Below, one piece after another: positions 1,370 through 16,510 of a DNA stretch of 16,510 nt; the first letter of the stretch is position 1; each line of letters begins with the position of its first letter. The stretch spans positions 1-16,510 of the forward strand of contig JAWSUI010000074.1 of the NCBI GenBank assembly GCA_033551855.1. Direction: 5' to 3'. The position numbers and the translations under genes were made by a program. The notes beneath the pieces are model-generated. The model was given only the letters and a program-made list of their open reading frames with translations, ran no database searches and had not been told where the DNA came from. Source of the DNA: Deferrisomatales bacterium (GTDB lineage: Bacteria; Desulfobacterota; Deferrisomatia; Deferrisomatales; JACRMM01).

Positions 1370-1410
1370 GTAGGAGTGCTCCGGTCAGGAGGTGTCTTCA
1401 TAGGCCATCG

Positions 1411-1440
1411 AAGATAGAGGCCACCCGCGGCAGGTGTCAA
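1411..1440 (-). promoter_or_regulatory. Putative sigma70 promoter of the tolQRA operon
   Basis: Minus strand: TTGACA (1440-1435), 18-bp spacer, TATCTT (1416-1411), about 40 bp upstream of the tolQ start. Confidence 0.6.
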
Positions 1441-1474
1441 TCCCGATCCCCATCCCGGTCCCCGGCCCGGATCC
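1440..1474. repeat. Degenerate hexamer tandem repeat (ATCCCG/ATCCCC)n
   Basis: ATCCCG ATCCCC ATCCCG GTCCCC GGCCCG GATCC, abutting the -35 of the tolQ promoter. Confidence 0.5.
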
Positions 1475-1498
1475 ACAGGTTGTCGGCTGGCGGGGGGC

Positions 1499-1551
1499 GG
1501 GAGCCCCTGCGTTTCGCCCCGCAAGCCGCGGCTGTTCGAAGAGGTGTCCCC
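1499..1551 (-). repeat. Dispersed ~53-bp hairpin element, copy 1
   Basis: Reverse complement GGGGACACCTCTTCGAACAGCCGCGGCTTGCGGGGCGAAACGCAGGGGCTCCC matches 2554-2606 at 43/53 positions without gaps (manual count). Confidence 0.8.
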
Positions 1552-1686
1552 GCCGGCCGCGGTACGCCGGGCTTCACCCGTTTGCGCCGGCCGCGGCCGG
1601 CCGGTCGACGCGGTAGGGGGCTGCTTTCCTGGCCTCCCGGAACCCGGCCCAAGATGTGGTGGTGGATTGTGGGAGTGCGCCCGGCG

Positions 1687-1716
1687 TTGGGGGTGGGGGC
1701 GGGCCTGTGCTACCAT
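1687..1716 (+). promoter_or_regulatory. Putative extended -10 sigma70 promoter of pilD
   Basis: TTGGGG (1687-1692), 18 bp, TACCAT (1711-1716) preceded by TGC; purine-rich GGGAGGGAGG before ATG 1753. Confidence 0.4.
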
Positions 1717-1752
1717 CCCGGCCCGGCCGGGGGGAGGGAGGCGAGGGTTCGG

Positions 1753-2526
1753 ATGGAGCTGGGTGTCCTGGGTGCGGTCGGCGCGGGGTTGCTGGGGGCC
1801 GTGGTGGGCAGCTTCCTCAACGTGGTGATCCATCGCCTGCCCCACGGGGAGTCCCTGTCCTTTCCCCCCAGCCACTGCCCCCGGTGCCGCGCGCGAATCC
1901 GTCCGCGGGACAACCTGCCGGTGATCGGCTTCCTCCTGCTGCGGGGCCGCTGCCGCGACTGCGGCGAGGCGATCTCCTGGCGCTACCCCCTGGTGGAGGC
2001 CCTCATGGCGGGCCTGTCCCTCGGTCTCTGGGGCCTCCACGGGCCGAGCCTCCTCTTCGCGGTGCAGTTCGTCTTCCTGGCGGGCCTGGTGGCCGTGACC
2101 TTCATCGACATCGACCTCAAGATCATACCCGACTCCCTGAGCCTGGGGGGGATTGCCGTCGGCTTGGCCTGTTCGGTCGTCACCCCCCTGGGGTGGAAGG
2201 CGAGCCTTGCCGGGATCGGCTTGGGGGGCGGCCTCCTCTTGGCCGTGGCCGGCGGGTACTACCTGGTGACCCGCCGGGAGGGCATGGGCCTCGGGGACGT
2301 GAAGCTCCTTGCGGCGATCGGGGCCTTCCTGGGCTGGCAGGCCGTGCTCTTCACGGTCTTCGTGTCGTCCCTGGTGGGCTCTGCCGTCGGCCTCTCGGTG
2401 GGCGCCCTCCGGGGCTCGGGTTTGCGGCTCGAGGTCCCCTTCGGCCCCTTCCTGGCCCTCGGGGCCGCCGCCTGGGTCTTCGTCGGCCCTCCCCTGGTGG
2501 ACTGGTACTTCGGGATCTTCCCCTGA
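1753..2526 (+). CDS. pilD: Type IV prepilin peptidase/N-methyltransferase (A24A)
   Basis: GSFLNVVIHRLP, SHCPRC...RGRCRDC (two CxxC), FIDIDLKIIPD and GMGLGDVKL (catalytic Asp motifs), VPFGPFLA. Start moved from the track's 1480 to ATG 1753, where family-like sequence begins. Confidence 0.95.
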   Translation: MELGVLGAVGAGLLGAVVGSFLNVVIHRLPHGESLSFPPSHCPRCRARIRPRDNLPVIGFLLLRGRCRDCGEAISWRYPLVEALMAGLSLGLWGLHGPSLLFAVQFVFLAGLVAVTFIDIDLKIIPDSLSLGGIAVGLACSVVTPLGWKASLAGIGLGGGLLLAVAGGYYLVTRREGMGLGDVKLLAAIGAFLGWQAVLFTVFVSSLVGSAVGLSVGALRGSGLRLEVPFGPFLALGAAAWVFVGPPLVDWYFGIFP

Positions 2527-2553
2527 CGGCCCGCCCTGTGGACCCAGGCCCGT

Positions 2554-2607
2554 GGGGACACCCCTTCGGGTCGCCGCGGATTGCGGGGCGGAGCGGAGGG
2601 GTTCCCC
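2554..2607 (+). repeat. Dispersed ~53-bp hairpin element, copy 2
   Basis: GGGGACACCCCTTCG-GGTCGCCGCGGATTGCGGGGCGGAG-CGGAGGGGTTCCCC; the ends pair and the apical stem is CCGCG-GAT-TGCGG. Confidence 0.8.
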
Positions 2608-2654
2608 GGCCCCGAGCACGTGCCAGGCGGTGGACCCCGGGGGACCGCCGCGCG

Positions 2655-2684
2655 TTGACACCCGCACGAGTCCTCTGCTAGGTT
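2655..2684 (+). promoter_or_regulatory. Putative sigma70 promoter of the liv operon
   Basis: TTGACA (2655-2660), 18 bp, TAGGTT (2679-2684) preceded by TGC (extended -10); strong SD AAGGAGGAG at 2732-2740. Confidence 0.65.
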
Positions 2685-2744
2685 CCGCGCACTCCCGAGG
2701 GGCCGCTCGGCCCCGGGCGCTTTCTTTCCGAAAGGAGGAGTCCC

Positions 2745-3863
2745 ATGAGAAGAGCCCTAGCCCTGGCGGTGGGCCTGTGTCTCGCGGCCGGTTCCGCCTG
2801 GTCGTCGGAACCCCTGAGAATCGGCCTGATGGCCCCGCTCACGGGCTCCTGGGCGAGCGAGGGCCAGGAGATGAAGAGGATCCTGGACCTCCTGGCCAAA
2901 GGTGTCAACGATCGGGGCGGCCTCCTGGGCCGGCAGGTGGAGATCGTGGCCGAGGACGACGGGGGGGATCCCCGGACGGCATCCCTGGCGGCCCAGCGCC
3001 TGAGCACGCGCGGGGTGGTGGCCGTGGTGGGCACCTACGGGTCGTCCATCACCGAGGCCAGCCAGACGATCCTGGACGAGGCCGAGATCGTGCAGATCGC
3101 CAACGGTTCCACGGCCGTGCGGTTGACGGAAAAGGGGCTCAAGTACTTCCTCCGCACCTGCCCCCGGGACGACGAGCAGGGCAGGGTGGCCGCCCAGACC
3201 CTCCGGGCGCGCGGTTTCTCGAAGGTGGCGATCCTCCACGACAACACCAGCTACTCCAAGGGGTTGGCCGAGGAGGCGCGGGGCCTGCTGGGCCAGGCCG
3301 GGGCGGCGGTGGTCTTCTTCGACGCCATCACGCCGGGGGAGCGGGATTACACCGCGGTCCTCACGCGGCTCAAGACGGCCGGCCCGGACGCCGTGTTCTT
3401 CACGGGGTACTACCCGGAGGCGGGCCTCCTGCTGCGGCAGAAGAAGGAGATGGGCTGGGGCGTGCCCTTCCTGGGGGGTGACGCCACCAACAACCCGGAC
3501 CTCGTGAAGATCGCCGGGACGGCCGCGGCCGAGGGCTTCCTCTTCCTCAGCCCGCCCGTACCCCAGGACCTTCCCTTCGAGAGGGCGAAGGAGTTCCTGT
3601 CCTCCTACAGGGCTGCGTACGGCAGCGCCCCGGGCTCCATCTGGGCCGTGCTCGCCGGCGACGGCTTCCTCTCGGTGGTCGCGGGGATCGAGGGGGCCAA
3701 GAGCACCGAGGCGGCCGCCGTGGCGGCGTATCTGAAGAACGACCTGAAGGACTTCTCCGGTCTCACGGGTACCATCGCCTTCGACGAGAAGGGCGACCGG
3801 GTCGGGGAGGTGTACAAGGTCTACCGCGTGGACGCGAGCGGGGGCTTCGTCCTCCAGCCGTAG
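2745..3863 (+). CDS. livK: Branched-chain amino acid ABC transporter substrate-binding protein (LivJ/LivK family)
   Basis: Signal peptide; IGLMAPLTG, GGLLGRQVEIVAEDDGGDP, YFLRTCPRDDEQG, GLTGTIAFDEKGD; first gene of a liv operon. The actual ligand cannot be determined from sequence alone. Confidence 0.9.
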   Translation: MRRALALAVGLCLAAGSAWSSEPLRIGLMAPLTGSWASEGQEMKRILDLLAKGVNDRGGLLGRQVEIVAEDDGGDPRTASLAAQRLSTRGVVAVVGTYGSSITEASQTILDEAEIVQIANGSTAVRLTEKGLKYFLRTCPRDDEQGRVAAQTLRARGFSKVAILHDNTSYSKGLAEEARGLLGQAGAAVVFFDAITPGERDYTAVLTRLKTAGPDAVFFTGYYPEAGLLLRQKKEMGWGVPFLGGDATNNPDLVKIAGTAAAEGFLFLSPPVPQDLPFERAKEFLSSYRAAYGSAPGSIWAVLAGDGFLSVVAGIEGAKSTEAAAVAAYLKNDLKDFSGLTGTIAFDEKGDRVGEVYKVYRVDASGGFVLQP

Positions 3864-3888
3864 GGGCGACGCATGCGCCGCCCCTACG
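3859..3888. repeat. GTAG-family REP-like palindrome overlapping the livK stop codon
   Basis: CGTAGGGGCGACGCATGCGCCGCCCCTACG: 30-bp palindrome with a single mismatched pair (A/C), bounded by GTAG...CTAC. Confidence 0.75.
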
Positions 3889-4014
3889 TGACGCCTGGTT
3901 CCAGATTCCCGGGCCTCAAGGGTTTCTAGGCGCAGGCGGTTTCCAACGTTTCGGGCGGCCCGCGGAGACAGTCCGCGGGCCGCCCGGTTTCTGTGCAAAC
4001 GGGGCGGGCACCCC

Positions 4015-4920
4015 ATGGAACAGTTCTTCCAGCAGCTCACCAACGGACTGGCCGTGGGGGGGATCTACGCGCTGATCGCCCTGGGCTACACCATGGTGTA
4101 CGGCGTGCTGCGCCTGATCAATTTCGCTCACGGGGATCTCTTCACCCTCGGCGCCTACCTGGGGATGACCCTCCTGGTCTCCCTGGGGCTCCGGGAGGGG
4201 CTCGGCCCGGTCCTCGGCCTCGCCGTGCTGGCCGTCATGGTGATGGGGCTGGTGGGGCTGGCGGGTGCGCTCCTGGAGCGCACGGCCTACCGGCCCCTGC
4301 GGGAATCCCCCCGGCTCTCGGCGGTGGTCTCCGCGCTGGGGGCCTCCATCTTCCTCCAGAACACGATCATGCTCGTCTACGGGGCCCGGTTCCAGGTCTA
4401 CCCCCAGGACGTGCTCCCCCGGGTCGTCGTGCCGGTCTTCGGCGTGCCCGTGCCCCTGATGCGGCTGCTCATCGTGGGGGCGACGGTGGTGCTCATGGCG
4501 GCTCTGTACCTCTTCATCCAGCGCACCCGCCTCGGCACCGCGATCCGCGCGGCGGCCATCGACCAGGGGGCCGCGCGGCTCATGGGGATCGACGTGGACC
4601 GGGTGATCCTCGTGGTGTTCCTGCTGGGGCCGGCGCTGGGGGGCGCAGCGGGGTTGATGGTGGGGCTCTACTACGGGCAGATCAACTTCACCATGGGGTG
4701 GGTCTACGGGCTCAAGGCCTTCACGGCGGCGATCCTGGGGGGGATCGGGAACATTCCCGGGGCCATGGTGGGCGGGCTGCTCCTGGGCGTGATCGAGGCC
4801 CTGGGGGCCGGCTACCTCTCCATGGCATGGAAGGACGCGATCGCCTTCCTGGTCCTGATCGTCATCCTCATCGTCCGGCCAACGGGGCTCCTGGGCGAGC
4901 GGGTCGCGGAGAAGGTCTGA
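4015..4920 (+). CDS. livH: Branched-chain amino acid ABC transporter permease
   Basis: QQLTNGLAVGGIYALIALGYTMVYGVLRLINFAHG, GLKAFTAAILGGIGNIPGA, RPTGLLG. Confidence 0.95.
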   Translation: MEQFFQQLTNGLAVGGIYALIALGYTMVYGVLRLINFAHGDLFTLGAYLGMTLLVSLGLREGLGPVLGLAVLAVMVMGLVGLAGALLERTAYRPLRESPRLSAVVSALGASIFLQNTIMLVYGARFQVYPQDVLPRVVVPVFGVPVPLMRLLIVGATVVLMAALYLFIQRTRLGTAIRAAAIDQGAARLMGIDVDRVILVVFLLGPALGGAAGLMVGLYYGQINFTMGWVYGLKAFTAAILGGIGNIPGAMVGGLLLGVIEALGAGYLSMAWKDAIAFLVLIVILIVRPTGLLGERVAEKV

Positions 4921-5873
4921 TGCGCCCGGCGGTGGTCGTGTACGGCCTGGCCGCCGTGGCCCTGGCCACCTGCCCCCTCTACCTGAACGCCTACTGGGTG
5001 GACGTCCTCAACAGCGTCGGGCTCTACGGGCTGCTGGCCCTGAGCCTGAACGTGATCCTCGGCGACGCCGGCATGTACAACATGGGCCACGCGGCGTTCT
5101 ACGCCGTGGGGGCCTACACCGCGGCCATCCTCAACACCCGCTTCGGCGTGCCGCTGCTGTGGGCGCTCCCGGCCGCCGGGGTCGCGGCGGGCGCCTTCGG
5201 GGCCCTGGTGGCCCGACCGGTCATCCACCTGCGCGGCGACTACCTCCTGATCGTGACCGTGGGGATGGGCGAGATCGTGCGGATCGCCCTGGTCAACGAC
5301 GTTTTCGGCATCACCGGGGGCCCCAACGGGATCTTCGGGATCGAACGCCCGACGCTCTTCGGCCAGCGCATCCGGCGGCCGGCGGAGTTCTTCTACCTGA
5401 TCTGGGGGTTCGTGGGGATCAGCCTGTTCCTCCTGTACCGCCTCCGGCACTCGCGCTTCGGGCGGGCCCTGAACTACCTGCGGGAGGATCCCGTGGCGGC
5501 GGAGGGCAGCGGCATCGACACGGGGCGGTACCGGCTGGGGGCGTTTGCGATCGGCGCCGCCTGGGCGGGCATGGCCGGGAGCCTCTTCGCCGGCAAGATG
5601 ACCATCATCTCCCCGGAGTCGTTCAGCTTCTGGGAGTCGGTGGTGATCTTCATGATCGTCATCCTCGGCGGGTCGGGGAGCCTCGCCGGGGTGCTCCTGG
5701 CCGCCTTCCTGATCGTGGGGCTGCCCGAGGTGTTCCGAGGGTTCGCGAGCGCCCGGATGCTGGTCTTCGGGCTGGTCATGATGGTGATGATGGTGGTGCG
5801 CACCCAGGGCCTCTTCCCCCCGAGACCCCGGACCTTCGGCCTCGCAGGGAACGACGGGGGGCGCCGGAGGTGA
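4920..5873 (+). CDS. livM: Branched-chain amino acid ABC transporter permease
   Basis: ATG 4920 overlaps the livH TGA; LSLNVILGDAGMYNMGHAAFYAVGAY, LRGDYLLIVT, ISPESFSFWES, ILGGSGS. Confidence 0.93.
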   Translation: MRPAVVVYGLAAVALATCPLYLNAYWVDVLNSVGLYGLLALSLNVILGDAGMYNMGHAAFYAVGAYTAAILNTRFGVPLLWALPAAGVAAGAFGALVARPVIHLRGDYLLIVTVGMGEIVRIALVNDVFGITGGPNGIFGIERPTLFGQRIRRPAEFFYLIWGFVGISLFLLYRLRHSRFGRALNYLREDPVAAEGSGIDTGRYRLGAFAIGAAWAGMAGSLFAGKMTIISPESFSFWESVVIFMIVILGGSGSLAGVLLAAFLIVGLPEVFRGFASARMLVFGLVMMVMMVVRTQGLFPPRPRTFGLAGNDGGRRR

Positions 5874-6631
5874 GCCTGCTGAGCGTGCGGGGGGTCACCA
5901 AGACCTTCGGCGGCCTCACCGCCGTGAGCGACGTCTCCTTCGAGGTGGAAGAGGGGCAGATCGTCGGCCTCATCGGGCCCAACGGTGCAGGCAAGACCAC
6001 GGTGTTCAACCTCATCACCGGCAACTACCGGCCCGACGCGGGGCAGATCCACTTCGGCGGCACGGTGATCACCGGCCTCCCCACCCACCGGATCGTCTCC
6101 CTGGGCATCGCCCGCACCTTCCAGACCATCCGGCTCTTCCAGCGCCTCTCCGCCGTGGAGAACGTCCTGGCCGGGTGCCACTGCCGCATGCGGGCGGGGC
6201 CCCTGGCGGGGATGCTGCGGACCCGGGCGGAGCGGCGGGAGGAGGCCGAGGCCTTGGAGCGGTCCCTCGAGGAGCTCGAGTTCGTCGGGCTGCGGCCGGA
6301 GGCGGCGCAGGTCGCCGGCAGCCTGTCCTACGGGAAGCAGCGCCTCCTGGAGGTCGCCCGGGCACTGGCCACCCGCCCGAGGCTCCTCGTCCTCGACGAG
6401 CCGGCGGGCGGGATGAACGAGCTCGAGACCCAGAGCCTGCTCGGCCTCATCCGGCGCCTCCAGGGGCGGGGCATCACGGTCTTCCTCATCGAGCACGACA
6501 TGAGCCTGGTGATGCGGGCGTGCGAGAAGCTGGTGGTGCTGGAGCACGGGGCCAAGATCGCGGAGGGCCCCCCCGAGGTGGTCAAGGCGGACCCCCGCGT
6601 CATCGAGGCGTACCTGGGGGCCGACGAATGA
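5870..6631 (+). CDS. livG: Branched-chain amino acid ABC transporter ATP-binding protein
   Basis: GTGA overlap with livM; Walker A GPNGAGKTT, GIARTFQ, LSYGKQRLLEVARALA, LLVLDEPAGG, LIEHDM, VIEAYLG. Confidence 0.95.
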   Translation: MSLLSVRGVTKTFGGLTAVSDVSFEVEEGQIVGLIGPNGAGKTTVFNLITGNYRPDAGQIHFGGTVITGLPTHRIVSLGIARTFQTIRLFQRLSAVENVLAGCHCRMRAGPLAGMLRTRAERREEAEALERSLEELEFVGLRPEAAQVAGSLSYGKQRLLEVARALATRPRLLVLDEPAGGMNELETQSLLGLIRRLQGRGITVFLIEHDMSLVMRACEKLVVLEHGAKIAEGPPEVVKADPRVIEAYLGADE

Positions 6632-7377
6632 CGCCCCCCCTGCTGGAGATCTCGGACCTGCGGGTCCGGTACGGCAGCGTCGAGGCGCTGCACGGGGTCG
6701 GCCTCCGGGTGGACCAGGGCGAGATCGTCACCATCCTCGGCGCCAACGGGGCCGGCAAGACGACCACGCTGATGGCGGTGAGCGGACTGGTGCGGGTCGC
6801 CTCGGGAACCATCCGGTGCGGCTCCTCCTGGCTGCACAAGCTCGGGGCCCACCGGATCGTGGCCGAAGGGGTCTCCCAGGTGCCCGAGGGGCGGCGGGTC
6901 TTCGGCACCCTGACGGTGCAGGAGAACCTCGACTTGGGGGCGTTCACGTGCCGCGACAAGGCCCGCGTCCGAGAGACCCTCGGGTGGATCTACGAGCTGT
7001 TCCCCGTCCTCGCCCAGCGCCGCGGCCAGCTCGCCGGAACCCTGAGCGGCGGCGAGCAGCAGATGCTGGCCATCGGCAGGGCGCTGATGGCCGGTCCCAA
7101 GGTGCTCCTCCTCGACGAGCCGAGCCTGGGGCTCGCGCCGCTCCTGGTGAAGACGATCTTCCAGACCATCCGGCAGATCAACGAGACGGGGGTGACGGTG
7201 GTCCTGGTGGAGCAGAACGCCCGGGCCGCCCTCAAGCTCGCGCACCGGGGGTACGTGCTCGAGGTGGGACGGGTGGCCCTGGAGGGCCCGGCGGCCGACC
7301 TGCTGGCCGACCCCAGGGTGCAGAGCGCCTACCTCGGGGGCGGCGGGCACGGAGAGGCCGTAAAGGAGTCGTCGTGA
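6628..7377 (+). CDS. livF: Branched-chain amino acid ABC transporter ATP-binding protein
   Basis: ATGA overlap with livG; GANGAGKTT, VPEGRRVF, LSGGEQQMLAIGRALM, LLLDEPSLGLAP, VEQNA. Confidence 0.95.
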   Translation: MTPPLLEISDLRVRYGSVEALHGVGLRVDQGEIVTILGANGAGKTTTLMAVSGLVRVASGTIRCGSSWLHKLGAHRIVAEGVSQVPEGRRVFGTLTVQENLDLGAFTCRDKARVRETLGWIYELFPVLAQRRGQLAGTLSGGEQQMLAIGRALMAGPKVLLLDEPSLGLAPLLVKTIFQTIRQINETGVTVVLVEQNARAALKLAHRGYVLEVGRVALEGPAADLLADPRVQSAYLGGGGHGEAVKESS

Positions 7378-7557
7378 GCTGGCCGGGGTGCGAGGAACCA
7401 TCGTGTTCTCGCGCAGTGGCGCAGAGGCGCCGGGAAAGACAAGAAACTCCTCCGCGTCCCAGCGTCTCCGGCGAGATCGTTCTTGCCCTTGATGGACCCG
7501 CTGAGTTTCCGGAAGGGCCAGAAGGAGGGGGCGAGGGGGTTCGCGAGTGGAGGTTCT

Positions 7558-7613
7558 TGGGCAGGAAGGGCGTGGGCAGGAAGGGCATGCGATACACAGG
7601 GCATGCGATACAC
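7558..7613. repeat. Two adjacent short tandem duplications
   Basis: TGGGCAGGAAGGGC at 7558-7571 and 7573-7586; AGGGCATGCGATACAC at 7582-7597 and 7598-7613 (exact copies). Confidence 0.85.
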
Positions 7614-7614
7614 C

Positions 7615-7670
7615 TTGATCCCGGCGGCACATTCATGCTAAACGGCTCTTTCCCGGTTGGGTGCTACCAT
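7615..7670 (+). promoter_or_regulatory. Candidate promoter(s) upstream of pnp
   Basis: TTGATC (7615-7620), 18 bp, TAAACG with TGC extension; a second TGC-TACCAT extended -10 at 7662-7670. Both are weak matches. Confidence 0.35.
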
Positions 7671-8043
7671 CGCATCGTTGACCCCCCCTCGCACGTCGAC
7701 GCAGCTATGGGCGCTCCCGGCAACGTAGCTCTTGCCGAGAGGTGACCCTGCACATGACCTTCCTGCCTGCCTTTTCCGGCTCGGAACCGCGCTTTCGTCC
7801 GTTCGCATCCGTAGCGCCCTGATCGTTCGGCCCTGACCGGGGTATCGGACCCCGGGGCCGGTTCGCGGCGCCCACGCGCTGCGGCTCCTCCCCCGCCCCA
7901 CGCTTCCGCAACCCCCGAAGGGCATCCCGAGGGGCCCCTTGGGGCGCCCGTGCGCGCTCTCTGCGGCCCCGGCTCCGTTTCGCACGAACCCCGCAGACCT
8001 TGCGATGACATGCAAGGAGACCGCCAGAAGAGAGGATCAAGCC

Positions 8044-10155
8044 TTGTTCGACATCCACACGATGCAGCTGGAGGTGGGGGGGAGGACCCTCACCCTGGAG
8101 ACGGGCCGCATGGCCCGCCAGGCCCACGGGGCCGTTTTCGCCACCTACGGGGGCACCGCGGTGCTCGCCACCGCCGTTGCGGATGCCGACGCCCGGCAGG
8201 GACTCGACTTCCTGCCTCTCACGGTGAACTACCAGACCAAGACCTTCGCAGCCGGGAAGATTCCGGGAGGGTTTTTCAAGCGCGAGGGCAAGCCGCCGGA
8301 CAGCGACACCCTGACTTCGCGGCTCATCGACCGCTCCCTCCGGCCGCTTTTCCCCAAGCGCTTCGCGTGCGAAACCCAGGTGATCGCCACCGTGCTCTCC
8401 CACGACGGGGAGAACCCGGGCGACACGGTGGCCCTGGTGGCGGCGTCGGCTGCCTTGACCATCTCCGACATACCTTTTGCCGGCCCGGTGGGGTGTGTGC
8501 GGGTGGGATACGTGGACGGCGTCTACGTAATCAACCCCTCTTTGGAACAGCTCGACGAGAGCCGGCTCGACCTCGTCGTGGCCGGGACCCGCGGCGCGGT
8601 GACCATGGTGGAGAGCGGCTCCCGGTTCTTGAGCGAGGAGGAAGTGCTCGGCGCCATCGAGGCCGGGCATGCCGAGATTCGCCGCCTGGCCGAGCTGCAG
8701 GAGGCGCTCGCCCGCGTCGCAGGCAGGGCCAAGCGCGACGCGCCGGTGTCCGATTCCGACCCGGCGGTGGCGGCGCGCGCGGCGGCGTTTTTCGGCGAGT
8801 ACGGAAAGCGGGCGCTCACCGAGCCCACCAAGGAGGCGCGCGAGGGCGCCCTGAGGGAGGCCCGCGCCGCCCTCGTCGGTCTCCTAAGCGACCCCGAGCG
8901 CCTGCGCGCCCGGCTGTACGTGGCCGCCTTCGACGCCCTGGTGCGGTCCCACGTGCGGGGCGACGTGCTGGACCGGGGCGTGCGGGTGGACGGACGGGGC
9001 ACCGGGAAGGTGCGGCCCATCGCCGTGGAGGCCGGGCTACTGCCCCGCGTCCACGGCTCGGCGCTCTTCACCCGCGGGGAGACCCAGGCGCTGGTCGCGG
9101 CCACCCTGGGAACCTCCCGCGACGAGCAGCTCATCGAGGCGCTCGAGGGCTCCCACTACAAGAAGTTCCTCCTCCACTACAACTTCCCGCCGTTCGCCAC
9201 CGGCGAGGCGCGCTTCCTGCGAAACCCCGGCCGGCGAGAGATCGGCCACGGCGCCCTGGCCGAGCGGGCACTGGCGCCAGTGCTCCCGGCCCGCGAGGAG
9301 TTCCCCTACACCATCCGGCTCGTCTCCGAGGTGCTGGAGAGCAACGGCTCCTCCTCCATGGCCACGGTCTGCGGCGGGAGCCTGGCGCTCATGGACGCCG
9401 GGGTGCCCGTAGCGGCGCCCGTGGCGGGGGTGGCCATGGGCCTCATCTGCGAGGGCGAGCGCTACGCAGTGCTCACTGACATTCTGGGCGACGAGGACCA
9501 TCTGGGAGACATGGACTTCAAGGTGGCCGGCACCCGGGAGGGCATCACCGCCCTGCAGATGGACATCAAAGTGCAGGGCCTCACCCGGGAGATCCTTGCC
9601 GCGGCCCTGGCCGAGGCCCGCGAGGCGCGCCTCCACATCCTGGGGCGGATGGAGGCCGCCTTGGCCGAGGCCCGGGACGACCTCTCCCCCTGGGCCCCCC
9701 GCATCACGGTCATCCGGGTGCACCCGGACAAGGTGCGCACGGTCATCGGGCCCGGCGGCAAGAACATCCGGGCCATCGTGGCCGCGACCCAGGCGGCCGT
9801 CGACATCGAGGACGACGGCTCGATCCGCATCGCCAGCAGCGACGAGGCCCGCACCCGAGAGGCCATCCGCATGATCCGCGAACTCACCCAGGAAGCCGAG
9901 ATCGGCAAGGTCTACCAGGGCGTGGTGCGGAGGCTCATGGACTTCGGCGCGTTCGTGGAGATCTTTCCCGGCACCGACGGGCTGGTGCACATCAGCGAGA
10001 TCGCCCGGGAGCGCGTGGCGAACGTGTCGGACTACCTCAAGGAGGGGGACGAGGTCGCGGTCAAGGTGCTCCACGTCGATTCCAGCGGGAAGATCAAGCT
10101 CTCGCGCAAGGCCGTCTTGCAGGACGAGCCCAAGAGCGCTGGAAGGGCGGGGTAG
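8044..10155 (+). CDS. pnp: Polyribonucleotide nucleotidyltransferase (PNPase)
   Basis: GKIPGGFFKREGKP, RLIDRSLRPLFP, HGSALFTRGETQ, HYNFPPF, RREIGHGALAERAL, ESNGSSSMA, DILGDEDHLGDMDFKVAGT, KH (IGPGGKNI) and S1 (FGAFVEIFPGTDGLVHISEI). Start placed at TTG 8044 (MFDIHTMQLEVGGRTLTLETG), 7 nt after SD AGAGGA. Confidence 0.97.
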   Translation: MFDIHTMQLEVGGRTLTLETGRMARQAHGAVFATYGGTAVLATAVADADARQGLDFLPLTVNYQTKTFAAGKIPGGFFKREGKPPDSDTLTSRLIDRSLRPLFPKRFACETQVIATVLSHDGENPGDTVALVAASAALTISDIPFAGPVGCVRVGYVDGVYVINPSLEQLDESRLDLVVAGTRGAVTMVESGSRFLSEEEVLGAIEAGHAEIRRLAELQEALARVAGRAKRDAPVSDSDPAVAARAAAFFGEYGKRALTEPTKEAREGALREARAALVGLLSDPERLRARLYVAAFDALVRSHVRGDVLDRGVRVDGRGTGKVRPIAVEAGLLPRVHGSALFTRGETQALVAATLGTSRDEQLIEALEGSHYKKFLLHYNFPPFATGEARFLRNPGRREIGHGALAERALAPVLPAREEFPYTIRLVSEVLESNGSSSMATVCGGSLALMDAGVPVAAPVAGVAMGLICEGERYAVLTDILGDEDHLGDMDFKVAGTREGITALQMDIKVQGLTREILAAALAEAREARLHILGRMEAALAEARDDLSPWAPRITVIRVHPDKVRTVIGPGGKNIRAIVAATQAAVDIEDDGSIRIASSDEARTREAIRMIRELTQEAEIGKVYQGVVRRLMDFGAFVEIFPGTDGLVHISEIARERVANVSDYLKEGDEVAVKVLHVDSSGKIKLSRKAVLQDEPKSAGRAG

Positions 10156-10182
10156 GGGGCTCGCGTCCCGGGAGGTGCCGCC

Positions 10183-10605
10183 GTGGAACACCGGTCCGAA
10201 CCGACACCGGTCCGCCGCCGGGTTCTCGTCGTCGACGACGAGGCCGGCATGCGCAAGATCCTGCGCAAGAGCCTCGCGGCTCTCGGCGGGTACGCCGTAT
10301 GGGAGGGGGGCCGGGCGGAAGAGGCCCTGGGCCGCCTCGCCAGCGCGGACTTGCTCGTCACCGACATCTCCATGCCCGGGATGGGGGGGCTCGCCTTGAT
10401 CCGCCGGGCAAGGGACGAGCACCCGGCCCTGGCGATCCTCGCGGTCTCGGCCGACCCGGCGAACCGCGGCCCGGCGCTGGGCGCCGGCGCCGATGTCTTC
10501 CTGGCCAAGCCCCTGCGGCCGAGCACGATCGTGGAAGCCGCCGGGCTGCTCCTCGCGGGCAGAGGCGGCCGTGAGGAAGACCAACCCTCGGAGTCCGACC
10601 CATGA
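10183..10605 (+). CDS. Single-domain response regulator (CheY-like receiver)
   Basis: VLVVDDE, DLLVTDISMPGMGG (phospho-acceptor Asp), AVSA, FLAKP; no output domain; SD GGAGG upstream of GTG. Confidence 0.88.
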   Translation: MEHRSEPTPVRRRVLVVDDEAGMRKILRKSLAALGGYAVWEGGRAEEALGRLASADLLVTDISMPGMGGLALIRRARDEHPALAILAVSADPANRGPALGAGADVFLAKPLRPSTIVEAAGLLLAGRGGREEDQPSESDP

Positions 10606-12191
10606 CCCCAGACACCAAGACCCTCGCCGCCGAGGTCTCCCGGCGGCGCACCTTCGCCATCATCTCCCACCCCGACGCGGGCAAGACCACGCTCACCGAG
10701 AAGCTCCTGCTCTACGGGGGCGCGATCCACCTGGCCGGCAGCGTCAAGTCCCGGCGGGCCTCGCGCCACGCCACCTCCGACTGGATGGAGCTCGAGCGCC
10801 AGCGCGGCATCTCCATCACCTCGAGCGTGCTTCAGTTCGACTACGCCGGCCACCGGATCAACCTGCTCGACACCCCCGGCCACCAGGACTTCTCCGAGGA
10901 CACCTACCGCACCCTGACCGCGGCGGACGCGGCGGTGATGCTGATCGACTGCGCCAAGGGCGTCGAAGCCCAGACCCGCAAGCTCTTCGAGGTGTGCCGG
11001 CTGCGGGCGATCCCGATCTTCACCTTCGTCAACAAGCTCGACCGGGAAGGCCGCCCCCCCCTGGAGATCCTCTCGGAGATCGAGGAGGTCTTGGGCATCG
11101 CGGCCTGCCCGCTCTACTGGCCGCTCGGCATGGGCCCGCGCTTTCGGGGGGTGTACGACCTGCGTCGCCGCCAGGTTCTGCTGTACGAGGCGGAAAAGCA
11201 CGGCCAGAAGAAGGCCCGGGCCCGGGTGGCCGGACCCGACGACCCGGCCATCGCGGAGCTGTTGAGCCCGTGGGACTACCAGGCCTTCCGGGACGAGGTG
11301 GCGCTCCTGGAGGGAGCCGGGGAGCCCCACGATCTCCCGGCCGTGCTCCGGGGCGGGCAGACGCCCGTCTTCTTCGGGAGCGCGGTGACGAACTTCGGGG
11401 TCGAGCCGTTCCTGGCCGACTTCCTTACCATGGCCCCCCCGCCGGGGCCGCGTCTCGCCGCGTGCGGTCCCGTGGCACCCGAGGAGCCCCGGTTCTCCGG
11501 GTTCGTCTTCAAGATCCAGGCGAACATGGACCCCCGGCACCGGGACCGGGTGGCCTTCGTGCGGGTATGCTCGGGGCACTTCCGCCGGGGCCTCAAGGTG
11601 CGCCACCCGCGGCTGGGGCGCGAGCTGGCCCTGGCGGTGCCGCTCCAGTTCCTAGCCCAGGAGAGGGCCCTGGTGGAGGAGGCGTTCCCCGGCGACGTGG
11701 TGGGCCTCCACGACCGGGGCACGCTGCGCATCGGCGACACCCTGGCCGAGGGCGACGACGTCGTCTTCGAGGGGGTTCCCCACTTCTCCCCGGAGCTCTT
11801 CGCCCGAGTGCGGGTGAAGAACGCGCTGCGGGCCAAGCAGCTCCAGAAGGGCCTGGAGCAGCTCGGTGACGAGGGGGCGATCCAGGTCTTCCGCCAGCCC
11901 TGGGGCGACCGAGACCCCATCGTGGGCGCGGTGGGGCAGCTCCAGTTCGAGGTGCTCACCCACCGCTTGCAAGGTGAGTACAGCGTGGAGGCGCGCCTCG
12001 AGCCCATGCCCTTCCAGCTGGCCCGGTGGGTCGAGGGGGAGGAGCCTGCCCCCGAGGCGCTGGGCCGCGACGCGAGCACCCTCCTCTGCGAGGACCGCCA
12101 CGGCCGGCCGGTGGTGCTCTTCCGCAGCCAGTGGGCCCTGAGCTGGGTGGCGGAGCGCCATCCGAGCCTGGCGCTGCGGGCCGCGGCCTGA
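10602..12191 (+). CDS. prfC: Peptide chain release factor 3
   Basis: RRRTFAIISHPDAGKTTLTEKLLL, SDWMELERQRGISITSS, LLDTPGHQDFSEDTYRTL, NKLD, FVFKIQANMDPRHRDR, GAVGQLQFEV; 529 aa. Confidence 0.97.
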   Translation: MTPDTKTLAAEVSRRRTFAIISHPDAGKTTLTEKLLLYGGAIHLAGSVKSRRASRHATSDWMELERQRGISITSSVLQFDYAGHRINLLDTPGHQDFSEDTYRTLTAADAAVMLIDCAKGVEAQTRKLFEVCRLRAIPIFTFVNKLDREGRPPLEILSEIEEVLGIAACPLYWPLGMGPRFRGVYDLRRRQVLLYEAEKHGQKKARARVAGPDDPAIAELLSPWDYQAFRDEVALLEGAGEPHDLPAVLRGGQTPVFFGSAVTNFGVEPFLADFLTMAPPPGPRLAACGPVAPEEPRFSGFVFKIQANMDPRHRDRVAFVRVCSGHFRRGLKVRHPRLGRELALAVPLQFLAQERALVEEAFPGDVVGLHDRGTLRIGDTLAEGDDVVFEGVPHFSPELFARVRVKNALRAKQLQKGLEQLGDEGAIQVFRQPWGDRDPIVGAVGQLQFEVLTHRLQGEYSVEARLEPMPFQLARWVEGEEPAPEALGRDASTLLCEDRHGRPVVLFRSQWALSWVAERHPSLALRAAA

Positions 12192-12224
12192 GGCCGGGAG
12201 CCGGACGCAGCAGAGAGGGGAGCC

Positions 12225-12330
12225 GTGGAAGAATGGACCGAAGCCCAGCTCGAGGAGCTGCGCCGCGACCTGGTGGCGTTGCGCGAGGAGCGGGAAGGCC
12301 TCCCGGATACGGCCCGAGGGCGCCATCTCG
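12225..12330 (+). pseudogene. Orphan N-terminal helical fragment, possibly from a DksA/TraR-like gene
   Basis: Good SD (GAGAGGGGGAG) and [29 protein letters not shown] reads as an amphipathic coiled-coil start, then runs in frame into the groEL remnant. The family assignment is from recall only. Confidence 0.35.
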
Positions 12331-12392
12331 CGCGTGAAGAGACCGAAGAGCCCGGCGGCTCTGTACCGGAACCCCTGCGGAAGGAGGAGATC

Positions 12393-12608
12393 ATGGCAGC
12401 CAAGAAGATCGAGTACGGCCAAGAGGCGGGCGAGCAGTACACCGATCTCCGGGAGGCCGGGATCATCGACCCCGCCAAGGTCACCGGGACGGCGCTCCCG
12501 AGCGCAGCCAGCGAGGCCAGCATGCTCCTGACCACCGAGGCCGTCATGGTGGAAGACATTAAGGACGGGAAGAAGGGGCCCGGATTCGAAGGCGGCGGCC
12601 GTCCGTGA
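12393..12608 (+). pseudogene. groEL: Internally deleted groEL remnant (N-terminal ~12 aa joined to the C-terminal ~59 aa)
   Basis: SD AAGGAGGAG, then [12 protein letters not shown] (GroEL N-terminus; E. coli MAAKDVKFGNDA) directly followed by [40 protein letters not shown] (GroEL C-terminal GIIDPxKVTRxALQNAAS...LLTTE motif). Confidence 0.85.
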
Positions 12609-13378
12609 GCCGGCGGGGGGACCTTGGGCGGGACGAGCTCCTCCGCGCCCTGACCGAAGCCGCGGCCCAGGCGGTGCGCGCCGAGAGGGTGGTGGTCTTC
12701 GGGCCGTGGGCCCGGGGGAGCGAGAGCCCCGGAGACCCCGTGGACCTCCTGGTGGTCACGGCCGCACCGTTCGGCGGCGGGCAGGATCGGACCCGGATGG
12801 CGGCGCAGCTCGGGAGCGCTCTTGCGAACTTCCGGATCCCCAAGCGCATTCTGGTCTTTACCGCGGCCGAGGTAGCGCGGTGGGGGGGCTCGGCCGCCCA
12901 CCCCACCGGCCGAATCATGGGCGAGTCGTCCCGTTCCGGACCCGACCCCGAAGGCGCCCACCTGCTTCTCGACGTGGCGGCCAAGCACCTCAAGGCGGTC
13001 CACGGCATGGCGGACTCGGACCTGTTCGACGACGATATCTTCGGCTTTCACTGCCACGCCGCCGCGGCCAGCGCGCTGCGGGCGTGGCTCGCGCTGCTGG
13101 GCGCTGACCCTTGGCTGGCGGCGGACGATCTGGGCGAGCTACTGACTGAGGTCGGAGAGCGGACCGACCTGCCTGAAAGATTCGCAGATCTCACGACACT
13201 CAGCATCTTCGCCGTCCAGCACTTCCTCGTCCCTGCGGACGACCTCCTGGCGCCCGGGGGGCGCCGCCGCCTGCAGGACCTCGTCCGGCGCCTCCACGAG
13301 CACGTTCAGGGGCTGCTCGAAGAGCGAAGCCCTACGAAATCCAAACTGGAAGGCCGCCGCCCGATTTCTCCCGGGTGA
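12605..13378 (+). CDS. Fused nucleotidyltransferase (MNT)-HEPN domain protein with degenerate motifs
   Basis: N-half [25 protein letters not shown]...[13 protein letters not shown] resembles minimal nucleotidyltransferases; C-half [15 protein letters not shown]...[22 protein letters not shown]...DDLGELL resembles HEPN (GFHxQQAxEKxLKA...HDL). GTGA overlap with the upstream stop. Confidence 0.72.
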
Positions 13379-13508
13379 GTGACCCTCCGCCGCGGTAGCT
13401 CGTCGCGCTCGCGAGAGGGACGGTCGTGTTGCCCCGGGGCCTTGCCCCTCGTTGTATGATCCAGAAGCCGTGTCGAAGAGGATTCCGGCTCAGGCCCAGG
13501 ATGGCGAG

Positions 13509-13901
13509 ATGTGGGAGGAAAGCGCCGAGCAGCTCGGTGCCCTGATCCAGCAGTACGTGCGCACCCGCGGCGGCATCGAGGCCCGCAGCGACTCGGAACC
13601 TGCCGCGCAGGGATGCCTCTTGGAGGCCGGCCTTCGGGAGCGCGTCGACGTTCTGGGCCTCGACGCGGATCGGCTGTTGGACGTCGAACCGAAGGCGGTT
13701 CTGGCCGAGATCGAGCGCCTCGAACGAGAAGCGGCGCGGGAGGACGCGCGGGTGCGGGAGGCAGCCGCCCGCGCTCGTGCGCGAGAGGAGGTGAGCATCC
13801 ATGGTGGAACGAACCCTTCACGGCCTGACCGTCGAGTGCGTCCAGGGAGACATTGCGAACCAGCCGGACGTGGAAGCCGTCGTCAACGCGGCCAACGCTG
13901 A
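13509..13901 (+). CDS. Hypothetical protein (probable stop loss; overlaps the macrodomain gene by 101 nt)
   Basis: Protein-like helical composition (MWEESAEQLGALIQQYV...AVLAEIERLEREAAREDARVREAAAR); AGGA 7 nt before ATG 13509; TATGAT at 13455-13460 may be a -10. Start uncertain (track gives 13452). Confidence 0.4.
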   Translation: MWEESAEQLGALIQQYVRTRGGIEARSDSEPAAQGCLLEAGLRERVDVLGLDADRLLDVEPKAVLAEIERLEREAAREDARVREAAARARAREEVSIHGGTNPSRPDRRVRPGRHCEPAGRGSRRQRGQR

Positions 13902-14358
13902 GCTGCGTAGGGGGGGCGGGGTAGCCGGGGCGATCCACCGGGCGGCAGGCCCGGGCCTCGAAGAGGAGTGCCGACCGCTCGCGCCCATCCGCCCGGGCCA
14001 GGCCGTCCTCACCGGTGCCCACGGGCTGCCCAACCGGCACGTGATCCACTGCCTCGGGCCGGTCTACGGCCTGGACGAGCCTGCGGAGGAGTTGCTGGCA
14101 TCCTGCTACCGCAACGCGCTGCGCCTCGCGGAGGCGCACGGGATCGGGAGCGTGGCGTTTCCTGCGATTTCCACGGGTGCTTTCGGATACCCGATGGCTT
14201 CGGCGGCGCGCGTGGCCCTGGAGGCGATCCGGGAGCTGTCTGGGCAACTGGTCCGCGTCCGCCGCGTCCGCTTCGTCCTGCATGACCGCGAAAGTCAAAG
14301 CGTCCATGCCCGGGTTCTCAGGGAATTGCCGGCAACCGTGTCCGGGGAGTCTCAATGA
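13801..14358 (+). CDS. Macrodomain protein (MacroD/YmdB-like ADP-ribose or O-acetyl-ADP-ribose hydrolase)
   Basis: GDI, AVVNAANAELRRGGGVAGAIHRAAG, VIHCLGPVY, CYRNAL, SVAFPAISTGAFGYP; SD GAGGAGGTG. Confidence 0.93.
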   Translation: MVERTLHGLTVECVQGDIANQPDVEAVVNAANAELRRGGGVAGAIHRAAGPGLEEECRPLAPIRPGQAVLTGAHGLPNRHVIHCLGPVYGLDEPAEELLASCYRNALRLAEAHGIGSVAFPAISTGAFGYPMASAARVALEAIRELSGQLVRVRRVRFVLHDRESQSVHARVLRELPATVSGESQ

Positions 14359-14458
14359 CACAAAGCCTTGGTACGTGCACCGAATTTGGGCGGAAGCGGC
14401 GTCCTCGTGCTCGCCCGAGCCCTTTGCGGGCGCTACGCCCCGGTGGCAGGGAGCTGGA

Positions 14459-15712
14459 ATGCAGGTAACGGGGCAAGCCGGAGCCCATCGGGGCTATCTT
14501 CGCTTTGTCTGCACCCACGCGCGGGTCCTGTCCTTCGGTGTGCTGCTGACGCTCTTCTCCAGCTTCGGGCAGACCTTCCTGATCTCCCTCTTCGTGCCGC
14601 GATGGCTCGAGGCCTTTGCGCTCGACGCGGCGCGGTTCGGGGTGCTCTACGCGGGCGCCACGCTGCTGTCGGCGGCGAGCCTGCCCTTCTTGGGCCGGTT
14701 GCTCGACCGCACCTGCCTGCTTCGTTTCAGCCTGGGGGCGGGCCTGGGGCTGGTGCTGGCCTGTCTCGCGATTGCGCTGGCGCCGAATGCCGGGGGGCTG
14801 TTCCTGGCCCTCTTCGGCCTGCGGCTCACCGGCCAGGGGTTGCTGAGCCTCACAGCGTCCACGACCATGGCGCGGACGTTTGAGCGGGGCCGGGGCCGGG
14901 CGCTCAGCCTCTCGGGGCTCGGATACCCGCTGGGCGAGGGGCTGCTGCCGCTGGGCGTCGTGCTTCTGCTTCAGCGGGCGGACTGGCGCTGGAGTTGGGT
15001 GTTTCTCGGAGCGGCGATCGCGCTCGTGCTGCTGCCGGCGATGGTCCTGCTCCTCCGCCCCACGGCAGGCCGCGAGGGGGCCCGCGGCGGGGCCGAGGTT
15101 TCGGACAGTGGGGCCGCCGGGAATCCCGTCCTGCTGCGAGACGGCCGCTTCTATGCCCTGCTGCCGGGCAGCCTGCTGGTGCCGCTGGTGCTGACGGCCC
15201 TGTTCCTCTACCAGGGGCCCCTGGCCGAGTCCCGGGGTTGGCCGATCCAGACCATGGCCACAGCGTTCGCCGGCTTTGCCGTTGCACGCTTTGGCGGTGG
15301 GCTTCTCATCGGGCCCTGGATCGACCGCTGGGGCGCCGCGCGGATCTTCCCCTTCGTCCCCCTGCCCCTCTGCGCCGGGCTCCTCGCCTTGAGCGTGGGC
15401 ACGGCGCCCTGGGTCGCGCTGGTCTATCTGTCCCTGGCAGGGGTGACCCAGGGAATCGCCGGCCCGACCTTGACCGCGCTTTGGGCAGAGGTGTACGGGG
15501 TTGAGTCCCTCGGCGCCATCAAGGGGACGGTGGCGACCCTCGCCGTGCTCGCCACGGCTCTTGGCCCCATGGCGCTGGGAGCACTCCTCGCCGCTGGGGT
15601 GCCCTTCTCGGCCATCGTTCCGGGCTGCCTGGGCCTCAGCCTGTCGGTCGCAGGCGTGAGTCTGCTGGCGCGCCGGCAACTGGAGGCCACAGCGGCTCCG
15701 GCGGTGGCCTGA
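14459..15712 (+). CDS. MFS transporter
   Basis: About 12 hydrophobic segments; motif A GRLLDR and its C-domain counterpart GPWIDRWGA; FSSFGQTFLISLF. Start placed at ATG 14459 after GGGAG. Confidence 0.9.
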   Translation: MQVTGQAGAHRGYLRFVCTHARVLSFGVLLTLFSSFGQTFLISLFVPRWLEAFALDAARFGVLYAGATLLSAASLPFLGRLLDRTCLLRFSLGAGLGLVLACLAIALAPNAGGLFLALFGLRLTGQGLLSLTASTTMARTFERGRGRALSLSGLGYPLGEGLLPLGVVLLLQRADWRWSWVFLGAAIALVLLPAMVLLLRPTAGREGARGGAEVSDSGAAGNPVLLRDGRFYALLPGSLLVPLVLTALFLYQGPLAESRGWPIQTMATAFAGFAVARFGGGLLIGPWIDRWGAARIFPFVPLPLCAGLLALSVGTAPWVALVYLSLAGVTQGIAGPTLTALWAEVYGVESLGAIKGTVATLAVLATALGPMALGALLAAGVPFSAIVPGCLGLSLSVAGVSLLARRQLEATAAPAVA

Positions 15713-15884
15713 GCGCCCGGAGATCGTGACCGGCATGAACGGACCGCTTCCGTCAGGCCGCGCGCGGCGCCGAGAACCGAAAACCATGGAAAGTGGCCGG
15801 AGATCGGGCCGGCACTGCGACCCCCGGCCGGGTGACCCGGCGCCACGGCACACGCCGAGCCGGCGACACCAGAGAGGAGACTGA

Positions 15885-16193
15885 GTGGAACGATCGCGAT
15901 CGGCGCCCCGCCAGCAGGGCCTGGAACGGTTCGAGAGGAACCTCTTCGAACGGCTTCGTGCCCTGAAAGGAGGGGCGCCCCCGCCCGACCCCCGAGGGGG
16001 TGTGGACCGCGTCGAGCTGGCCCTGAAACGCATCGGCTGGGGCAACTACCGGCTCTGTGCGGAATGCTGGGGGGCGATCGGGGAAGAGCGCCTGGAGGAG
16101 GATCCCACGAGGATTACCTGCAGCCGTTGTGCATCGAAGAAGCCTCGGTCACGAGAGCCGGGCGGCGGAAGCCGACTCGTCCAGACCCGCTGA
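15885..16193 (+). CDS. DksA/TraR-family C4 zinc-finger protein, short form
   Basis: VELALKRIGWGNYRLCAECWGAIGEERLEEDPTRITCSRCAS: C-x2-C-x17-C-x2-C with the ALxRI..G.Y..C context typical of DksA/TraR; SD AGAGGAG. Confidence 0.78.
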   Translation: MERSRSAPRQQGLERFERNLFERLRALKGGAPPPDPRGGVDRVELALKRIGWGNYRLCAECWGAIGEERLEEDPTRITCSRCASKKPRSREPGGGSRLVQTR

Positions 16194-16343
16194 TTCCCCC
16201 CGCGGAGCATCCCGGCAGGAGTGACGCCACGGATTCGCTGGATCGCATGCCTCCGCCGGGCGCCGAGCCGCCTGGCCGGCTTGGCGATCGCCCGCCGCGA
16301 TCGACACAGGAAACGGGTGAGACCGGGCCCGTCTGCCCTCCGG

Positions 16344-16396
16344 GGGCCCCTCCCTTCGAAAGGTCGCGGATTGCGGCGCTCGGCGGAGGGGCTTTC
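16344..16396 (+). repeat. Dispersed ~53-bp hairpin element, copy 3
   Basis: GGGCCCCTCCCTTCGAAAGGTCGCGGATTGCGGCGCTCGGCGGAGGGGCTTTC; 37/53 ungapped identity to copy 2; GCCCCTCC/GGAGGGGC basal stem, GTCGCG-GAT-TGCGGC apical stem. Confidence 0.7.
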
Positions 16397-16429
16397 CGGG
16401 CCTGTAGGCAGCCAGGTCGTGGACCATGA

Positions 16430-16458
16430 TCGAAGGAACCCATGTCGAAGGAACCCAT
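16430..16458. repeat. Tandem 14-bp direct repeat abutting a -35 box
   Basis: TCGAAGGAACCCAT at 16430-16443 and 16445-16458 (period 15). Confidence 0.85.
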
Positions 16459-16487
16459 TGACAGGGGGTCGCGGGGCGGGGTATAAG
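16458..16487 (+). promoter_or_regulatory. Strong sigma70-type promoter directed off the right edge
   Basis: TTGACA (16458-16463), 18 bp, TATAAG (16482-16487). Confidence 0.7.
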
Positions 16488-16510
16488 CCTGCTTCCTTTT
16501 CGGGGGGGCC

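Follow-up and report, generated by a model that had tools for sequence, protein, structure and literature searches.

A 208-bp miniature transposable element of a Deferrisomatales bacterium lies in register with host promoters and was probably spread by an IS1380-clade transposase

Introduction

Bacterial MITEs (miniature inverted-repeat transposable elements) of the Correia, RUP and ERIC type are short, non-coding sequences present in many copies, with inverted ends and a target duplication, and they occur nested and in tandem. Insertion sequences (ISs) of the IS1380 family have CC ends, are about 1.5–2 kb long and duplicate 4–5 bp of target DNA; ISEcp1 and ISPme1 also have an outward promoter within their right end and capture adjacent DNA in a one-ended manner. 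Here we describe a MITE of ~208 bp in the genome of a Deferrisomatales bacterium (4.24 Mb, 69.6% G+C; assembly GCA_033551855.1). Three copies lie in contig JAWSUI010000074.1, positions 1–16,510; this whole stretch of 16,510 nucleotides is called the window below. The element stands at a fixed distance upstream of host promoters, and was probably spread by a transposase of one IS1380 clade that is likely to find promoters by docking on the σ70 RNA polymerase.

Promoter targeting has been described for ISLre2 (p-MULT 3), ISKra4 (p-MULT 4) and TnGBS, which have Mutator-like DDE transposases and 8–9-bp target duplications; Guerillot et al. (2014; PMC3942029) propose contact with the initiation complex and describe a helical insert in the Mutator-type transposase. 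In Tempel et al. (PMC9208149), a distance preference is singled out for ISLre2 and ISKra4 only, and IS1380 elements are over-represented between co-oriented genes. IS1380 members are described, in a review of gene activation (PMC9330008) and a Paracoccus survey (PMC3281130), as carrying an outward promoter of their own, and Table 2 of the latter lists IS1247 with 1672 bp and a 5-bp duplication. For the ISAba32 subgroup of IS1202, bioRxiv 10.1101/2022.12.17.520857 describes insertions that are oriented and at a constant distance, with the XerCD site 5–6 bp from the left end. PMC5812530 contributed nothing further. Our literature search, which could not draw on ISfinder, on TnPedia or on the majority of subscription journals, turned up no description of an IS1380 element that targets promoters.

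Results

A dispersed gene-less element

The window contains three copies of a 53-bp sequence that align without gaps, at 1499–1551 (minus strand), 2554–2607 (plus) and 16344–16396 (plus), where the initial annotation had placed them. Recounting reproduced the identities given there for copies 1 and 2 (43/53) and copies 2 and 3 (37/53); copies 1 and 3 share 36/53. A profile built from the three copies matched the genome 161 times at E≤0.01. Conservation reached past the 53-bp core, by ~120 bp on its left side and 35 bp on its right, and a second, full-length profile built from 65 copies found 244 non-redundant copies at the same threshold, 86 of them full-length. The reversed genome, used as control, gave none at this threshold (best E 0.32), and the similarity is thus far beyond chance. 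The 53-mer had been presented as a hairpin unit; it is only part of an element of ~208 bp, and copies 2 and 3 are left-truncated.

The element has no gene. It has conserved ends of 12 bp and an imperfect inverted repeat of ~60 bp, in which 13 of 42 pairs were changed on both sides. Exact flanking duplications of 4 bp were found in 36/86 full copies (shuffled mean 1.18) and of 5 bp in 11/86 (shuffled mean 0.26); duplications of 6–10 bp were found in at most 1 of the 86, with none at 8 bp or at 9 bp (0/86 each). Because it has inverted ends, target duplications and dispersed gene-less copies, the repeat is a MITE, a non-autonomous IS derivative. Its copies cover 37,754 bp, ~0.9% of the genome, and the family looks old, with a median pairwise score of 0.72 and only 2 of 2556 pairs at ≥0.95. 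In a DNA search of 40 relatives the MITE was detected in both congeners (3/41 genomes, counting its own) and not in the other 38.

Five copies carry, at MITE position ~101, a second element of ~120 bp with inverted ends of its own and an inner G/C hairpin (C3:149384-149506, C14:77784-77902, C23:2889-3010, C31:10563-10681 and C47:21083-21204).

A long hairpin fold had been proposed for the 53-bp copies. The 71-nt z-scores of the three were +0.30, −2.32 and +0.04, ordinary overall, and the median for the core was −0.86 (40 copies); none of its seven consensus pairs was changed on both sides (0/7). A structured RNA was rejected as well: an Rfam scan gave 0 matches at E≤1, and the core did not covary. 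The argument that a plain terminator does not fit held good: of nine terminator-like sites, none overlaps a copy (0/9).

Insertion sites of the MITE

Right flanks were counted after 15 tandem MITE ends had been set aside, leaving 168. The triplet TTG begins at offset 13 or 14 from the right end in 95/168 flanks (1.4% expected at random) and TTGAC does so in 54/168 (0.06% at random); at the same offsets from the left end, TTG was found in 11/127 flanks and TTGAC in 2/127. These boxes resemble −35 elements, and a TAnnnT sequence followed 22–24 nt after the in-register TTG in 50/95 cases (genome 1.3%). Flanks without TTG at 12–15 still held TAnnnT at 35–38 in 20 of 58 cases (0–5 in nine control windows), and often carried TTTAC, TGGA or TCGAC, which are −35-like variants, at 13/14. 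Among full copies a box was in register at the right end in 57/86 and at the left end in 6, while 6 abutted another copy; one end or the other was in register in 63/86 (random 3.3%). Conversely, of the 118 promoters that match the strict consensus, 13 lie 11–16 bp downstream of a MITE right end. The promoter link noted in the window is thus genome-wide and oriented.

Duplication length and offset were coupled. A 4-bp duplication was paired with offset 13 in 16 full copies and with offset 14 in 3, and a 5-bp duplication with offset 14 in 5 and with offset 13 in none. Hence 9 bp separate the duplication from the −35 box. In the window, TTGACA sites with an 18-bp spacer to the −10 start at 1440 (minus), 2655 (plus) and 16458 (plus), and lie 58, 48 and 61 bp from the 53-mers, as first reported. 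These spacings are nevertheless not the true register: counted from the end of the element, copy 2 stands at 14 bp and copy 3 at 13 bp, to which a 15-bp duplication of host DNA is added.

Tandem duplications of 12–17 nt of host DNA, whose unit ends at the first T of the −35 box, were seen between the right end and the −35. They were present at 4/8 promoter-like sites lying at least 17 bp from an end; those noted are in the window (1440–1463 and 16429–16458), at C60:7288, C99:2694, C2:137934, C4:40256 and C88:4207, and at locus L425. A MITE right end also stands 57–59 bp upstream, on the same strand, of 2 of the 53 tRNA genes, both Met-type (C19:8331 and C23:31317).

Sites in related genomes

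Eight promoters occupied by the MITE were compared with their orthologues. In the congeners, 11/14 comparable sites were without a copy (one keeps an end-like remnant) and 3 were filled; in three other genera all of 18 orthologous sites (18/18) lacked the element. The promoter of copy 2 is present in G002 as an empty site. That of copy 3, by orthology the upstream promoter of an rRNA operon, is empty in both congeners, and is followed there (G001 and G002) by a second TTGACA site and then, by eye, the 16S start. Since the same promoters stand without the element in relatives, they do not need it. One DNA sequencing run, probably the source of the assembly, gave no contig joined across an empty site.

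The gap between tolQ and pilD is occupied in three species, by elements whose target duplications differ; those of G001 and G002 are reversed relative to copy 1 and have their right end 14 and 13 bp ahead of the pilD −35 box, with duplications of 5 and 4 bp respectively. A conserved regulatory module kept in one orientation was rejected in view of the 11 empty congener sites and this reversal. Of the initial interpretation, the promoter link and the option of a MITE-like element stand; the site for an activator, an IHF-like protein or an insulator does not, and the word 'domesticated' is not supported. Inverted ends, duplications, empty sites and the same register in transposase-bearing elements (below) together indicate that the promoter link is an insertion preference and not a regulatory site.

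The ffh promoter (L404, C6:16490 in the MITE-bearing genome) is nearly the same in five relatives (L419–L423). The element lies only 9 bp before its −35 box, as if the promoter-side duplication were missing.

Autonomous IS1380 elements with the same register

No long element between MITE-like ends was found in the genome itself. An apparently intact element with a 554-amino-acid transposase (L001, C81:3149-6421), which we take to belong to the IS1634 family, was rejected as a partner, its ends being unlike those of the MITE. In a congener, an IS1380 transposase gene is preserved as its 3′ end (an 85-residue fragment; NF033539 score 45.7), which lies next to an assembly gap and is followed by a MITE right end with TTGACG at offset 13 (L025). 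The promoter downstream of that end is followed by a leader resembling a thiamine riboswitch.

Autonomous relatives, gathered with this fragment as the starting point, are 1.8–1.9 kb long, have CC at both ends and encode transposases of ~505 residues; in long-contig records their duplications are mostly 4 or 5 bp. All five full-length proteins of this clade (clade A) that were scored matched NF033539 at 205–264 bits (cut-off 180) and also PF13701, and the IS1380 model was the sole NCBIfam match of clade-A proteins. By name, the records belong to Desulfobacterota lineages, Acidobacteria, Chloroflexota, Nitrospirota and Binatia. Of 159 autonomous IS1380-type loci, 29 were dropped (10 with no right end, 12 with a short flank, 7 with a doubtful end) and 5 further ones were set aside as tandem copies, leaving 125 unique right flanks. 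TTG was found at 13/14 in 85/125 of these (local background 3.6%) and TTGAC in 45; at left ends TTG was in register in 5/83. Among 24 elements with a duplication, 8 combined 4 bp with offset 13, and 8 combined 5 bp with offset 14. One Desulfomonilaceae genome contains 17 near-identical copies whose flanks all differ, and 12 of the 16 non-tandem copies are in register. The box is therefore host DNA, and the habit recent. The end consensus of the MITE agrees with that of the autonomous elements at positions 1–2 and 6–12.

The transposases conserve D180/D182, D255 and E403, which on their sequence would form the DDE triad. A model of a clade protein (mean predicted local distance difference test score 79.5) gave six structure matches at E≤0.001, all to Tn5 or piggyBac, and so predicts a Tn5/piggyBac-like RNase H fold. 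Clade-A proteins also have an arginine-rich helical insert near residues 95–116. Most of the IS1380 transposases sampled contain, at about residues 355–365, a glutamine-x-x-leucine-phenylalanine-like stretch that we take to resemble a sliding-clamp binding motif.

Comparison across the IS1380 family

A tree of 90 IS1380 transposases placed clade A in a supported group together with a sister branch (B), a branch of ~430-residue proteins (clade D) and a branch from the sample of the phylum of a Psychroflexus genome. For the family as a whole, generic end-finding gave usable ends at 77/160 loci (75 unique), and 83 with partial or doubtful ends were left out; related loci are not independent, and the contrast between clades was therefore judged by its size alone. 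In the ~430-residue branch 10/16 loci were in register, a weaker count because its end motifs were written after the flanks had been seen, the ends were set by eye and 6/22 loci had no end or flank. In the remaining IS1380 clades only 5/51 were in register, and the targets were mostly CTAG, TTAA or CTAA. In an alignment, a short list of residues separates the targeting from the non-targeting clades.

A canonical IS1380 query finds IS1380A, ISBdi2, ISSp1, IS1247, ISPme1, IS1678 and ISSsu5. With a query from the promoter-associated clade, no named IS was among the best 120 proteins listed, and matches in plasmid records were all under 29% identity.

Elements of the Psychroflexus-sample branch (L306, L239, L310, L317, L321 and L325) have AT-rich targets and no −35 register. 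The phylum of Psychroflexus uses a different promoter consensus, and the targeting habit may have been lost or re-aimed in this branch. One canonical IS1380 element (L014 in G010, 1191–2872), flanked by a CTAG duplication, borders what by eye resembles a clustered regularly interspaced short palindromic repeat (CRISPR) array.

Discussion

The likeliest account of these insertions is that a transposase of the IS1380 clade, supplied in trans, would place the MITE with its right end toward a promoter. Mobilisation in trans is very probable. A bound σ70 holoenzyme is the simplest guide because both promoter boxes are in register, and a weak −35 does not put the −10 out of place; tethering to the holoenzyme is likely, with σ region 4 as the nearest surface. 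Since 4-bp and 5-bp duplications alike stop 9 bp short of the −35 box, the promoter-side cut would be fixed, at roughly −45 to −49 relative to the start site. Such an insertion would spare both core promoter and gene, a safe landing place, and would sever the promoter from any sequence that had been upstream of about −49. Further hits beside an earlier insertion would yield tandem copies spaced by one target duplication.

Several observations weigh against this account. The promoters are putative, assigned throughout by their consensus boxes. No box is in register at either end in 17/86 full copies, and 39/86, as well as the window's copy 1, are without an exact or intact 4- or 5-bp duplication. 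A tblastn search with seven IS1380 proteins and a six-frame profile search found no IS1380 transposase in the genome's own assembly. The MITE resembles the autonomous elements only over its outer 30–45 bp (best E 0.13), so that its direct parent is not in hand. Within the supported group, sister branch B has 1/4 loci at 13/14 and one more at 15–16, and the Psychroflexus-sample branch has 1/6 in register. Finally, most flanks without TTG keep a −35-like variant, which leaves room for direct reading of the DNA.

This last point bears on the strongest alternative, in which element and targeting are the same but the transposase reads promoter DNA itself, through a box like TTGAC at a set distance or a tendency to bend or melt, and makes no contact with polymerase. 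TTG at 13/14 is indeed the strongest signal, the TTTAC, TGGA and TCGAC variants are frequent where it is absent, and reading of DNA exists in the family, since canonical IS1380 members choose short target words. Against it, a −10 box is in register at 28/54 of the targeted TTGAC sites and at 7% of genomic TTGAC, and the 20/58 flanks that keep the −10 register without TTG would demand that a single enzyme recognise two boxes, as far as 42 bp from the end of the element. Selection against TTGAC insertions inside genes could inflate the share with a −10, but hardly the register of flanks without TTG. We regard unaided reading of DNA as a minority possibility.

It is quite improbable that the repeat is instead a domesticated upstream module (a site for an activator or nucleoid protein, an insulator or a structured RNA) kept for its effect on promoters. 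The right half is kept more often (183 right ends, 127 left), about one strict-consensus promoter in nine carries a copy in register, and the proS and tolQ–pilD promoters are occupied in more than one species, all of which count in favour of such a module. Yet most orthologous promoters are empty with the same boxes, the shared sites differ in orientation and duplications, the core shows neither covariation nor an Rfam match, and the downstream genes are unrelated; retention of the right half follows if deletions are tolerated only away from the promoter, and the MITE profile was itself seeded on that half. Least probable of all is insertion without preference followed by selection for copies just upstream of promoters: a family of this age has allowed time for selection, but selection gives no peak 1–2 bp wide, no bias between ends, no coupling of duplication to offset and no tandem re-insertion, young near-identical autonomous copies are already in register (12/16), and other IS1380 clades, under similar selection, show it in only 5/51 cases.

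Docking on the polymerase invites comparison with the described promoter-targeting elements. Oriented insertion 13–17 bp upstream of a housekeeping −35 box, as in p-MULT 3 and ISKra4, is found here too. Membership of p-MULT was rejected: the duplications here are of 4–5 bp (8–9 bp in 0/86), and the transposase is of the IS1380 family with a predicted Tn5/piggyBac fold. Most likely the element works like the p-MULT 3 and ISKra4 elements and the habit arose convergently. With IS1247, ISPme1, ISEcp1, IS1380A and ISBdi2 the autonomous partners share the transposase family, CC ends, a 4–5-bp duplication and a length of 1.6–1.9 kb. They differ from the described IS1380 members, which have their own promoter inside, in that the −35 lies outside, in host DNA that differs from copy to copy; they differ from the sampled canonical clades, whose targets are CTAG/TTAA-like or AT-rich, in their −35 register. 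All the traits listed above for Correia, RUP and ERIC-type MITEs are found in the 208-bp element as well, but the target is set by distance to a promoter and not by a short word. In ISAba32 too, one subgroup aims, oriented, at a host protein-binding site and makes repeat hits, with the choice between protein and DNA read-out undecided there; its target is XerCD and its family another one.

A wider proposal seems to us evenly poised. A large IS1380 branch without a name, in a family that is the bacterial kin of piggyBac, may have independently evolved oriented, base-pair-exact docking on the σ70 RNA polymerase through a single transposase of ~430–510 residues that senses promoter occupancy, in at least four phyla (records from Desulfobacterota, Acidobacteriota, Chloroflexota and Nitrospirota). 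The MITE would then have marked about one in ten consensus promoters, an rRNA promoter among them, severing old upstream control, and the duplications at the first T of the −35 would be footprints of the same complex.

Promoter-targeted transposition is so far Mutator-like only in the literature found, so that a case with the Tn5/piggyBac fold would mean that it arose at least twice. One family offers a natural contrast between targeting and non-targeting clades that differ in few residues, and the tethering idea lends itself to direct testing with one transposase, ends of 12 bp and an existing 208-bp donor. In this uncultured bacterium the MITE ends flag promoters that number well above a hundred, and such an enzyme would serve to insert DNA while sparing genes, or to map promoters.

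Additional features of the window

Copy 1 is full-length (207 bp; 1466–1672, minus strand; profile positions 3–210, E 2e-46), with its left end at 1672–1661 and its right end at 1477–1466. The 53-bp core occupies its inner right half and overlaps the ~60-bp imperfect inverted repeat. The tolQ promoter-like site (TTGACA-18-TATCTT, 1411–1440, minus) lies 25 bp from the right end, and a 12-nt tandem duplication of host DNA (1440–1463, minus) has a unit ending at the first T of its −35 box. The −35 of the pilD site (TTGGGG-18-TACCAT, 1687–1716, plus) starts 14 bp from the left end; it is the fourth such site in the window and was missing from the initial list. Given the opposite orientation of the element in this gap in G001 and G002, copy 1 has two possible origins: it went in backwards at the pilD site, or it entered at tolQ (13 bp plus the 12-nt duplication) and a deletion then brought it up to the pilD site. 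The 25-bp gap to the tolQ −35 also fits the far side of the pilD insertion site, which lies at the same distance in G001. Behind these promoters lie a tolQ-type gene (635–1369, minus; PF01618) and pilD, encoding a prepilin peptidase (1753–2526, plus; PF06750 and PF01478).

Copy 2 (2534–2640, plus; profile 104–209, E 2.8e-16) has its right end at 2640, 14 bp from a promoter-like site (TTGACA-18-TAGGTT, 2655–2684, plus) of a gene for a periplasmic binding protein of an ATP-binding cassette system of the branched-chain amino-acid type (2745–3863, plus; PF13458). Another TTGACA, at 2908 (minus), is inside a gene and has neither a −10 box nor an element.

Copy 3 (16308–16429, plus; profile 89–205, E 3.2e-09) is also diverged, and its end at ~16429 was set by eye. 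It lies 28 bp before the −35 of a promoter-like site (TTGACA-18-TATAAG, 16458–16487, plus), which by orthology is the upstream promoter of the rRNA operon; 15 of these 28 bp are a tandem duplication of host DNA (16429–16458, plus) whose unit ends at the first T of the −35, so that the offset without it is 13.

Four further frames were noted by eye. A short frame at 12225–12608 has a second half resembling the GroEL C-terminus, and a frame at 12605–13378 resembles a fusion of nucleotidyltransferase and HEPN domain; a macro-domain gene comes next, at 13801–14358. Just upstream of copy 3, a short frame at 15885–16193 ends in a DksA/TraR-like four-cysteine stretch.

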